Assembly: GCF_011045215.1 (NCBI RefSeq)
Contig: NZ_CP049201.1
Origin: Escherichia coli
GTDB taxonomy: Bacteria > Pseudomonadota > Gammaproteobacteria > Enterobacterales > Enterobacteriaceae
Length of the DNA: 64,000 bases
Strand: one strand, 5' to 3'
A program made the position numbers. Positions 51,001 through 54,000 of the stretch are shown one piece after another; positions within the stretch are counted from its first letter, which is position 1; each line of letters opens with the position of its first letter.

Positions 51001-54000
51001 TTGCCACGACAATGCCTATGCCGGAGTACGATCCAGAGAATCCGCCGATGCTCGGTTTCTTTATGGTCGGCGCATATCAGGAGATCCTCGGCAACATGCA
51101 CAACCTGTTCGGTGATACCGAAGCGGTTGACGTGTTCGTCTTCCCTGACGGTAGTGTAGAAGTGGAACTGTCTGACGAAGGCGATACCGTGGCGGACATG
51201 CTGCAATATGTACAGCTCGATCCGAAAACGCTGTTAACTCAGTTCCGTGATCAAGTGAAGAAAACCGATCTTGATGCTGAACTGCAACAACAGTTCCTTG
51301 AAGAGTTCGAGGCAGGTTTGTACGGTTATACCTATCTTGAAGATGAATAATTAAGATTATTCTGCTGGCGGGTCGATTTATTTACGTAAATCGGTCCGCT
51401 TTCTTTTTATATATTCTTAAAAATAATTTAGCTGCTTTTCTTATTAAATAATCTCCCTACAATCGCTGCATTAATTAAATGCAGAGGGAACGGTTATGAA
51501 AAAATGGAAAGTACGCAGCGCGTTGGTGGCATTAATCGTGCTGCTGGCCGGTTGTTCCAGTAATGCGCAGTATAATAGCAGTGCATCGGGCAATGTCGGC
51601 ACCGCCTGGGGTGGGGATGTGCACTCAACGGTTCAGGGCGTATCTGCTGAGCGAGCCTGGCGCGATCCGGCGGAGATGATCGTTATTAGTTATTCGACTA
51701 ATGTTCCTTCCGGCTACGACCGCGTTTATAGCATTCGTATTAACGAACTGGAATATGCTATTCGCGATGGTAATTTTAATTCTCTACCTATTACGCGTGT
51801 TTATGATTCATCTAATAATGAACCACGCTATATTGTCCATGCCAGAGTCGGAATGAATTATCAATTATATGTCCGTAATTACAGTCGTAACACCAACTAC
51901 GAGATCGTTGCTACGGTTGATGGCCTGGATGTGCTGAACGGCAAGCAAGGTTCGCTGAATAACAACGGCTATATTGTGAATGCCGGAGATTCTTTAGCGA
52001 TTAAAGGATTCCGCAAAGATAAACATACCGAAGCGGCTTTTCAGTTCGCCAACGTTGCTGATTCCTACGCAGCCAATTCGGCGCAAGGCGATGTGCGTAA
52101 TACCGGGGTAATCGGCTTTGCCGCCTTTGAATTACAAGGCCCGGCGCAAAACGCGCTGCCACCGTGCTCTGGACAAGCTTTTCCAGCAGATAACAATGGC
52201 TATGCGCCGCCACCGTGTCGGAAATAGCAACCTCGCTTGATGCCTCGCCCATTTAAGGCGATAATTAGCACAAACTTGTGTTTCGCAAATCCAACCCTTC
52301 CTCGTCGGGCCTAACGACGCGGAAGGGTTTTTTTATATCGACTTTGTAATAGGAGTCCATCCATGAGCACCTTAGGTCATCAATACGATAACTCACTGGT
52401 TTCCAACGCCTTTGGTTTTTTACGCCTGCCGATGAACTTCCAGCCGTATGACAGCGATGCTGACTGGGTGATTACTGGTGTGCCGTTCGATATGGCCACT
52501 TCTGGTCGTGCGGGGGGACGCCACGGTCCGGCAGCTATCCGTCAGGTTTCGACGAATCTGGCCTGGGAACACAACCGCTTCCCGTGGAATTTCGACATGC
52601 GTGAGCGTCTGAACGTCGTGGACTGTGGTGATCTGGTATATGCTTTCGGCGATGCCCGTGAGATGAGCGAGAAGCTGCAGGCGCACGCCGAGAAGCTGCT
52701 GGCTGCCGGTAAGCGTATGCTCTCCTTCGGTGGTGACCACTTTGTTACGCTGCCGCTGCTGCGTGCTCATGCGAAGCATTTCGGCAAAATGGCGCTGGTA
52801 CACTTTGACGCCCACACCGATACCTACGCGAACGGTTGTGAATTTGACCACGGCACCATGTTCTATACCGCGCCGAAAGAAGGTCTGATCGACCCGAATC
52901 ATTCCGTGCAGATTGGTATTCGTACCGAATTTGATAAAGACAACGGCTTTACCGTGCTGGACGCCTGCCAGGTGAACGATCGCAGCGTGGATGACGTTAT
53001 CGCCCAGGTGAAACAAATTGTGGGTGATATGCCGGTTTACCTGACCTTTGATATTGACTGCCTGGATCCTGCTTTTGCTCCAGGTACCGGTACCCCGGTA
53101 ATTGGCGGCCTGACCTCCGATCGCGCCATTAAACTGGTACGCGGCCTGAAAGATCTCAACATCGTTGGAATGGACGTAGTGGAAGTGGCTCCGGCATACG
53201 ATCAGTCGGAAATCACTGCTCTGGCAGCGGCAACGCTGGCGCTGGAAATGCTGTATATTCAGGCGGCGAAAAAGGGCGAGTAAGCACCAGATGCGATGCG
53301 CACGGGTAAAACGTGCCATTAATGTCGGATGCGGCGTGAACGCCTTATCCGACCTACGTTCGGCACCCGTAGGCCGGATAAGATGCGCCAGCATCGCATC
53401 CGGCAATGCGCACAAGGTAACAAATGTGCCATTCATGTCAGATGCGGGGTGAACGCCTTATCTGACCTACGTTCGACACCACCAGCACCCGTAGGCCGGA
53501 TAAGATGCGCCAGCATCGCATCCGGCAATGCGCACGAGGTAGTGAATGTGCCATTTATGTCAGATGCGGCGTAAATGCCTTATCTGAACTACGTTTGGCA
53601 CCACCATGCCTTACTTTATCCCATCCGCGCTCATACGATCGCGAATATGCTGGGCGCGTTCGGCGGATGCAGGATGGTCGTCAAACATTGAGCTTTGGCG
53701 ACCTTCTTCCAGTTTTGCCAGTTTTTCAAAGCTGGTGGCAAGACCTGCCGGGCTGATGCCGCGTTGGCGCAGAAGATCGTAAGAATAATCATCGGCTTCT
53801 GCTTCCTGGCGCTGGGAGAATTGCGAATTAACTAATTTCTCGCCCAGATCACCGAGTTGTGATTGAGATAAACTGCCGACAATCCCGCCCGCAGAGGCCG
53901 CAGCTACTCGCACGGCATTTGTACCAAGTGCCACCTGCATTCCTTTTTTCACATGGCCTAACGCCACGTGCCCCATTTCGTGACCGATCACCGCTTCGAC

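Follow-up and report, generated by a model that had tools for sequence, protein, structure and literature searches.

The DNA analysed here (the window) is a stretch of 64,000 nucleotides of Escherichia coli, and the subject of this report is the gap between the genes speB and loiP, together with the array of repetitive extragenic palindromes (REPs) that fills it. The gap extends over positions 53284-53610. It is 327 bp long, non-coding, and bounded by two stop codons: that of speB, TAA, at 53281-53283 on the + strand, and that of loiP at 53611-53613, which reads TTA on the + strand. These limits were obtained by direct reading and from the list of open reading frames (ORFs). A preliminary description of the same DNA had placed a dense repeat cluster at 53284-53610 between these two genes, and both the coordinates and the gene names prove to be exact, as judged from the stop codons and the annotation. 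According to the annotation of a 99.5% identical genome and of K-12 MG1655, the gene order is speA, speB, loiP, tkt. For comparisons between strains a set of 5,426 complete E. coli genomes was used. A 601-bp query spanning the gap has matches in 5,425 of them, with speB and loiP annotated beneath, and the best match has 99.5% identity; the same query matches at a median of 13 places per genome.

Direct reading and annotation with regular expressions identify five REP palindromes in the gap, of alternating orientation: y(+), z2(-), y(+), z2(-), y(+). The array consists of a left flank, a y unit, two copies of the series tail-to-tail linker, inverted z2-like REP, 32-nt linker and y, and finally a right flank (Table 1). 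The five REPs are grouped as three tandem composite units whose periods are 113 and 122 bp. A repeat at 53363-53606 was identified with Tandem Repeats Finder (period 122, 2.0 copies, 90% matches, score 411), and a repeat search finds a 59-nt block three times, at spacings of 113 and 122 bp and with 85-90% identity. The array had been described earlier as three tandem imperfect palindromic units. This holds for the composite units, while the palindromes themselves number five, by both the regular-expression annotation and the folds.

Table 1. Coordinates of the speB-loiP array, of the adjoining genes and of the other REP sites in the window.
Feature	Position	Strand	Evidence and remarks
Left flank	53284..53323		degenerate copy of the head-to-head linker (ATGCGCACGGGTAAAACGTGCCATTAAT) after a half-REP-like CCAGATGCGATGC; direct reading, repeat family and inverted repeats
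REP y1, GTCGGATGCGGCGTGAACGCCTTATCCGACCTAC	53324..53357	+	y-type; nhmmer against y consensus 20.7 bits, E 8e-6; hairpin -10 kcal/mol, z -3.6
Tail-to-tail linker, 11 nt (GTTCGGCACCC)	53358..53368		between CTAC and GTAG; regular-expression annotation
REP z2a, GCCGGATGCGATGCTGGCGCATCTTATCCGGCCTAC, 36 nt	53369..53404	-	REP consensus with 2 mismatches; hairpin -12.9 kcal/mol, z -4.7
Head-to-head linker, 32 nt (AATGCGCACAAGGTAACAAATGTGCCATTCAT)	53405..53436		own weak hairpin, -5.4 kcal/mol, z -1.7
REP y2, GTCAGATGCGGGGTGAACGCCTTATCTGACCTAC	53437..53470	+	nhmmer 16.0 bits; hairpin fold; regular-expression annotation
Tail-to-tail linker, 20 nt (GTTCGACACCACCAGCACCC)	53471..53490		first 15 nt the same as in the right flank of K-12; junction made by the extra unit; allele comparison
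REP z2b	53491..53526	-	identical to z2a; REP consensus, nhmmer, fold, regular-expression annotation
Second full copy of head-to-head linker, 32 nt (AATGCGCACGAGGTAGTGAATGTGCCATTTAT)	53527..53558		repeat search, fold, regular-expression annotation
REP y3, GTCAGATGCGGCGTAAATGCCTTATCTGAACTAC	53559..53592	+	nhmmer 13.0 bits; hairpin -6 kcal/mol, z -3.1
Right flank, 18 nt (GTTTGGCACCACCATGCC)	53593..53610		reaches the loiP stop codon; direct reading
speB (agmatinase) coding sequence	52363..53283	+	ORF list; annotation of NZ_CP104613.1 (99.5% identical) and K-12; 3' end touches the cluster
loiP (formerly yggG, metalloprotease) coding sequence	53611..54369	-	annotation of NZ_CP104613.1 mapped onto the window; inside ORF 53611-54588; convergent with speB
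Counterpart of the K-12 Rho termination region	~53786	+	antisense to loiP; on the speB transcript, 175 nt beyond the array; measured in K-12
z1-type REP 30447-30475 (+), 16-nt linker, y REP 30492-30525 (-)	30447..30525		bacterial interspersed mosaic element between yggL and yggN
Three REPs: 41182-41209 (+), z2 41223-41258 (+), y 41273-41306 (-)	41182..41306		bacterial interspersed mosaic element in the convergent yggR/ruvX gap
Single degenerate y-type REP (GCCGGATGCGGCGTGAACGCCTATCC...)	47335..47361	+	nhmmer 11.6 bits; downstream of metK

Each of the five REPs folds on its own into a hairpin whose lower stem has 7 bp and whose upper stem has 4-5 bp, the two being separated by a 2x2 internal mismatch; the energies are -6 to -12.9 kcal/mol and the z-scores -3.1 to -4.7. 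Differences between the copies include paired changes that keep the stem, namely GTCGGAT..ATCCGAC against GTCAGAT..ATCTGAC, and a GTC..GAC foot in place of the canonical GCC..GGC. In y1 the compensatory pair at the stem foot is C>T / G>A, and y2 differs from y1 by a compensatory G>A / C>T stem pair. The most degenerate copy is y3, which has a mismatch at the stem foot. The z2a unit has the length and upper stem of a z2 and the foot of a y (GCCGGAT). An inverted repeat with 15-nt arms of 93% complementarity extends across the 11-nt linker at 53358-53368. The hairpins formed by the three linker copies are weak, with z about -1.7, and that of the left flank has an energy of -5.6 kcal/mol (z -1.7). 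As a single strand, the whole gap folds far better than shuffled sequences on either strand (z -6.2 and -6.5).

REPs are recognised as imperfect palindromes of 30-40 nt that fit the REP consensus and have a conserved GTAG/CTAC at the foot (PMC3333891). Each of the five units has CTAC at its end (read as GTAG on the opposite strand), with nhmmer E-values from 8e-6 to 4e-3, and direct reading and the DNA folds place the AA/GC internal mismatch in the stem of each. A pattern search with the REP consensus, proposed in the preliminary description as the way to check its claim, confirms that the cluster is far above chance. Allowing up to 3 mismatches, the window holds 3 matches to the full consensus where shuffled sequences predict 0.00, and 2 of the 3 are in the speB-loiP gap. 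Of the tail motif CTTATCMGRCCTAC there are 11 copies at no more than 2 mismatches, against 0.55 expected, and 5 of them are in the gap. The units are extragenic and dispersed: the array is located wholly between stop codons, and six more REPs occur at three other intergenic sites of the window.

Assignment of the units to REP types was made with nhmmer against y, z1 and z2 consensus sequences; those for y and z2 agree with the two palindromes of K-12 REP325 (Y-l-Z2 in the notation of its authors), and which of these is Y and which Z2 was assigned according to PMC3333891. For the + strand units the best-scoring type is y (13-20.7 bits), and for the - strand units it is z2 (17.4 bits, compared with 6.5 for y). 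Composite arrays of REPs are called bacterial interspersed mosaic elements (BIMEs). A BIME-2 is defined by y and z2 REPs in alternating orientation, present in tandem copies with a short linker and no L linker carrying a site for integration host factor (IHF), and in a variable number of copies (PMC3333891, PMC1187871). The speB-loiP array has alternating REPs in at least two tandem copies (periods 113 and 122 bp), and between strains the number of REPs is 1, 3, 5 or 7. In BIME-2 a short S linker joins REP and iREP, and s, l or r motifs stand at the flanks. In the present array the tail-to-tail linkers are short (11 and 20 nt); the head-to-head linker has 32 nt, unlike the 13-nt 'l' of REP325. 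BIME-1 was considered as an alternative class and rejected: there is no IHF consensus WATCARNNNNTTR in 53284-53610 and no z1-type unit, and the units are in tandem.

In blastn searches the 32-nt head-to-head linker is found in 4,029 of the 5,426 genomes, at a median of one place per genome and always at the speB-loiP locus. The idea that it is a dispersed BIME motif was rejected for this reason. Linkers of BIME-2 and of atypical BIMEs are known to differ between loci and to be conserved within a locus (PMC3333891), and the locus-specific linker found here fits this pattern.

The alleles of the gap differ by whole units. In K-12 the gap is 205 bp long and has three REPs (y, z2, y), so that the present allele, with 327 bp and five REPs, has one more unit of 122 bp. 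The preliminary description was silent on this extra unit, which was found by comparing alleles. The first 195 bp are identical to K-12 except for one base in y2, which reads GGGGTG here and GGCGTG in K-12. Other alleles have gaps of 47 bp (only a REP-like remnant), 90 bp (one y), 203 bp (three REPs) and 429 bp (seven REPs). These whole-unit differences agree with the published observation that BIME-2 copy number varies between strains (PMC3333891, PMC1187871). The junction that defines the present allele, consisting of y2, the 20-nt linker and z2b, is whole in only 3 of the 5,426 genomes, and a further 2,914 match only the first 29 nt of the junction query, which corresponds to a right end of the K-12 type. 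The 20-nt linker at 53471-53490 is itself the K-12 right flank (GTTCGACACCACCAG) joined to the CACCC of the short linker.

Two origins were considered for the third unit. A fresh duplication of unit 2 gives no clean fit, since the extra unit is only 91% identical to unit 2. A crossover with the seven-REP allele does not fit cleanly either: the identity to the last unit of that allele is 90.5%, and the adjoining loiP is K-12-like, with 7 mismatches to K-12 in its 3' 540 nt (53611-54150) compared with 52 of 540 to the seven-REP strain.

The loiP gene exists as two deeply diverged haplotypes, the seven-REP strain GN03590 (locus L005, positions 708-1247) differing from both K-12 and the window at 52 of 540 positions (9.6%). 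In the last 278 nt of speB only 10-12 positions differ among the window, K-12 and GN03590. On the basis of sequence comparison, this difference in divergence between loiP and speB suggests that recombination long ago left a boundary in the BIME or close to it. In a strain of serotype O121:H19 the same gap holds a 1.56-kb gene with a DUF1266 domain, and no REPs (locus L009, positions 957-2754). In strain M3, loiP adjoins dagF, with dgaE just upstream (D-glucosaminate genes), in place of speB (locus L008, positions 1-804). The speB-loiP gap is a general variable hotspot.

The K-12 orthologue of the array is on record in the literature. For a derivative of K-12 W3110, Sutormin et al. (2019) list in their Table DS3 'BIMEs2 3082469-3082615', of 146 bp, at 'yggG>-<speB'. 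Binding and cleavage by DNA gyrase in vivo is a further property attributed to BIME-2. The same work gives the number of gyrase cleavage sites in this BIME as 0 with ciprofloxacin, 2 with rifampicin and ciprofloxacin, 0 with microcin B17, and 2 with oxolinic acid. The RefSeq feature table used for K-12 has no REP features. A Rho termination region has been mapped at K-12 position 3082496 on the - strand, with a Rho score of 3.32 and p 1e-6 (Adams et al., 2021, PMC7815308, Supplementary file 2), and its coordinate was transferred to the window through the alignment of loiP between K-12 and the window, which is free of indels (Table 1). The element is one of a known kind and already on record, here in the form of a rare length allele.

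On the basis of these observations, we consider it very probable that the gap is occupied by a BIME, BIME-2-like or composite, in other words a tandem array of REP hairpins in the non-coding space between the convergent genes speB and loiP. The earlier opinion that this is a REP/BIME cluster of a sort ordinary for E. coli is supported by the consensus matches, the folds and the catalogued K-12 orthologue. The architecture is also that of K-12 REP325, and the sub-threshold naRNA4 hits described below agree with this. Several points weigh against this explanation. The z2-like units read GCCGGAT, a y-like foot, and not the GCCTGAT that marks z-type REPs; according to Ton-Hoang et al. (PMC3333891), TGCC|TGAT is present in REPs of the z type and absent from those of the y type. 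The y units for their part have GTC..GAC feet. Taken together, these feet mark the units as variants and not as textbook y and z2. The 32-nt linker is specific to the locus and does not match the linker 'l' (13 nt) of REP325; a stricter label may be 'atypical BIME'. The catalogue entry adds little on this question, because the 'BIMEs2' list seems to take in every REP site that is not BIME-1, which makes the subclass label weak. The K-12 allele has gyrase sites in only two of the four conditions. Finally, the part of the PMC7815308 supplement that was available lists no Term-seq 3' end at the 3' untranslated region (UTR) of speB or loiP or inside the BIME, and gives only the Rho region. Most of the defining features of BIME-2 are nevertheless present, and the most exact label that can be defended is 'BIME-2-like, possibly atypical BIME'.

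Other explanations of the array can be considered. Short palindromic repeats with a regular period of ~113-122 bp could be read as a CRISPR array, or as some other locus that acquires spacers, although the chance of this is vanishingly small. The uniform spacers and adjacent cas genes that the preliminary description had named as the signs of such a locus were not found: there are two kinds of repeat and they alternate in orientation, the 'spacers' are themselves repeated with 84-90% identity, and the neighbours are speA, speB, loiP and tkt. It is also extremely unlikely that the gap encodes small proteins. ORFs do exist in a mechanical sense, at 53291-53452 (53 aa) and 53329-53574 (81 aa), but they consist of repeat sequence, and no gene is annotated there in a near-identical genome or in K-12. 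Moreover, neither 113 nor 122 is divisible by three, and alleles that differ by units of these lengths would have any reading frame shifted from strain to strain.

Two further proposals concern the RNA. Given its position between convergent genes and its many GC hairpins, the array might act in both directions as an intrinsic (Rho-independent) terminator, serving speB and loiP alike. We regard this as very improbable, as neither strand has a T run after any hairpin, and a promoter/terminator scan of 53000-53900 gave 0 sites, either terminator-like or promoter-like; in K-12 the Rho-dependent region is found 175 nt past the array, which implies that the polymerase crosses it. The array could additionally be a source of small RNAs resembling naRNA4, which would bind HU, bridge DNA cruciforms and condense the nucleoid. 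naRNA4 (RF02564) is the only Rfam similarity obtained when 52000-55000 was scanned with permissive E-values, with scores of 46.4, 42.8 and 37.7 bits on the - strand. The unit plan is that of REP325 (z2-like REP, head-to-head linker, y REP), and the position of the Rho termination region beyond the array shows that K-12 transcribes it, on the speB strand at least. However, all of these hits are under the gathering score of 59.5 bits, and the scan at the gathering threshold gave none in the gap. The head-to-head linker is 32 nt long, against 13 nt in REP325, and its sequence is unrelated; the resemblance can be put down to the REP hairpins, which are common to every BIME. An naRNA4-like role in addition is improbable.

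How such an array might arise and function can be proposed at the levels of DNA, RNA and topology. In vitro, TnpA-REP binds and cleaves REPs only if GTAG and the mismatch in the stem are present, and it also recombines BIME strands (PMC3333891). A substrate of this enzyme would also call for a cognate tnpA-REP gene in the same genome and for cleavage at CT beside the iREP. Judged by their sequence, the REPs of the array would be of the kind recognised by TnpA-REP/RAYT, all five having kept GTAG and the AA/GC mismatch. The array would gain or lose whole units of 113 or 122 bp by recombination or slippage between the tandem copies, with TnpA-REP, RecA or replication slippage as candidate agents.

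At the RNA level, transcripts of speB and loiP would enter the array from opposite sides and meet no intrinsic terminator. The K-12 data indicate that the polymerase crosses the array and that Rho stops the speB transcript ~175 nt beyond it, and the same is presumed for the present strain. REP hairpins are known to shield Rho-terminated transcripts from exonucleases (Dar and Sorek, PMC6061677). In the present strain PNPase and RNase II may trim the transcript back to a REP hairpin, which would block 3'-to-5' exonucleases and so fix and protect the 3' end of the speB mRNA; by symmetry, the loiP mRNA may be protected in the same way. By analogy with these transcripts, fixing and protection of 3' ends is the most likely role of the array in RNA. 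With regard to translation, the first REP stem is 40 nt after the speB stop codon and the last REP ends 18 nt before that of loiP. According to PMC12306157, REP-dependent translational effects are tied to a range of 15 nt, and by this figure the first and last REPs are both outside the range. As for topology, the array may be a preferred site of gyrase binding and cleavage, as seen in two of four drug conditions in K-12, at a place where convergent transcription would pile up positive supercoils.

It is conceivable, though a long shot, that the 32-nt linker is not passive filler and has a function of its own, either as a protein-binding site or as the core of a processed, naRNA-like small RNA from the 3' UTR of speB or loiP. 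The features behind this idea are its restriction to the locus, its own hairpin and its retention in 4,029 of 5,426 genomes. If it is true, the number of units (0 to 3 extra) would tune the expression of speB or loiP, or the local loading of gyrase, between strains.

The importance of the array is mainly one of correct annotation. The REP/BIME label prevents it from being mistaken for a CRISPR, a cluster of small ORFs, a small RNA gene or an assembly artefact, and here our analysis agrees with the preliminary warning that such repeats could be taken for other elements. The locus is also a marker whose length varies by whole units, and the present allele of it is rare (junction in 3 of 5,426). 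The natural allelic series of 1, 3, 5 and 7 REPs could be used to study the effects of REP number on protection of mRNA 3' ends, on Rho termination and on gyrase loading between convergent genes.

Similar units had been noted at 30440-30545, 41175-41335 and ~47320-47370. All of these are real REPs by the tail motif and nhmmer, the last of them (47335-47361) being slightly to the right of the midpoint first given for it. All three sites are at the 3' ends of genes. When the window was scanned with nhmmer at high sensitivity for the y, z1 and z2 consensus sequences, no other convincing REP came up. At 47380-47405 on the - strand, immediately past the stop codon of metK, there is a GC-rich hairpin, GGCCAGC..GCTGGCC, with a T run after it. 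It looks like the intrinsic terminator of metK, with the decayed REP at 47335-47361 just beyond it.

Some other features of the window are recorded here. Between speA and speB there is an ORF of 243 aa (51496-52227, + strand) that is not in K-12, where the speA-speB gap is 137 bp. In other strains it is labelled 'hypothetical protein' or 'membrane protein', and it is present at 80% coverage or more in 3,550 of the 5,426 genomes. It has no Pfam hit, and its sole NCBIfam hit is meaningless (15.7 bits against a cut-off of 375). Three - strand genes at 33719-36554, between hemW and yggM, encode a TRAP transporter (substrate-binding protein, small permease and large permease) according to the annotation of the 99.5% identical strain. 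Inside this block, at 34301-34323, Tandem Repeats Finder identifies a perfect 12-nt tandem repeat (AATGCCGCCCAG, 1.9 copies), which is probably trivial. A tRNA gene at 21783-21855 on the - strand is the only Rfam match at the gathering threshold in the whole window.

The closest known system is the K-12 BIME-2 'yggG>-<speB', in the sense of Gilson and Bachellier. It occupies the same locus and has the same alternating REPs, tandem units, short tail-to-tail linker, lack of an IHF site and strain-variable copy number; it differs in having three REPs in 205 bp, compared with five in 327 bp here. From BIME-2 elements in general the present array is distinguished by the y-like GCCGGAT foot on hairpins of z2 length, the GTC..GAC feet of the y units and the locus-specific linker of 32 nt.

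REP325/naRNA4 (RF02564), a Y-l-Z2 array between yjdM and yjdN in K-12, has the same tandem succession of inverted z2, head-to-head linker, y and tail-to-tail linker. It has six units, however, where the speB-loiP array has two to three, and a linker of 13 nt unrelated to the 32-nt linker found here, and the Rfam scores of the present array are 38-46 bits compared with a gathering score of 59.5. The BIME-1 elements (also 'RIP' or 'RIB', made up of a y REP, L linker, z1 REP and IHF site) resemble the array in being intergenic and in having REPs in inverse orientation. They are single-copy, with z1 and a conserved L linker bearing the IHF site, whereas the speB-loiP array is tandem and has neither z1 nor IHF consensus. 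A further likeness is to the REPINs described in Pseudomonas, REP doublets mobilised by RAYT: the tail-to-tail pair of y, 11-nt linker and inverted z2 can form a longer hairpin of this kind, as seen in the fold of the - strand. In contrast to REPINs, the paired REPs are here of different types, and the pairs have been amplified in place and not dispersed, since the linker is specific to the locus.

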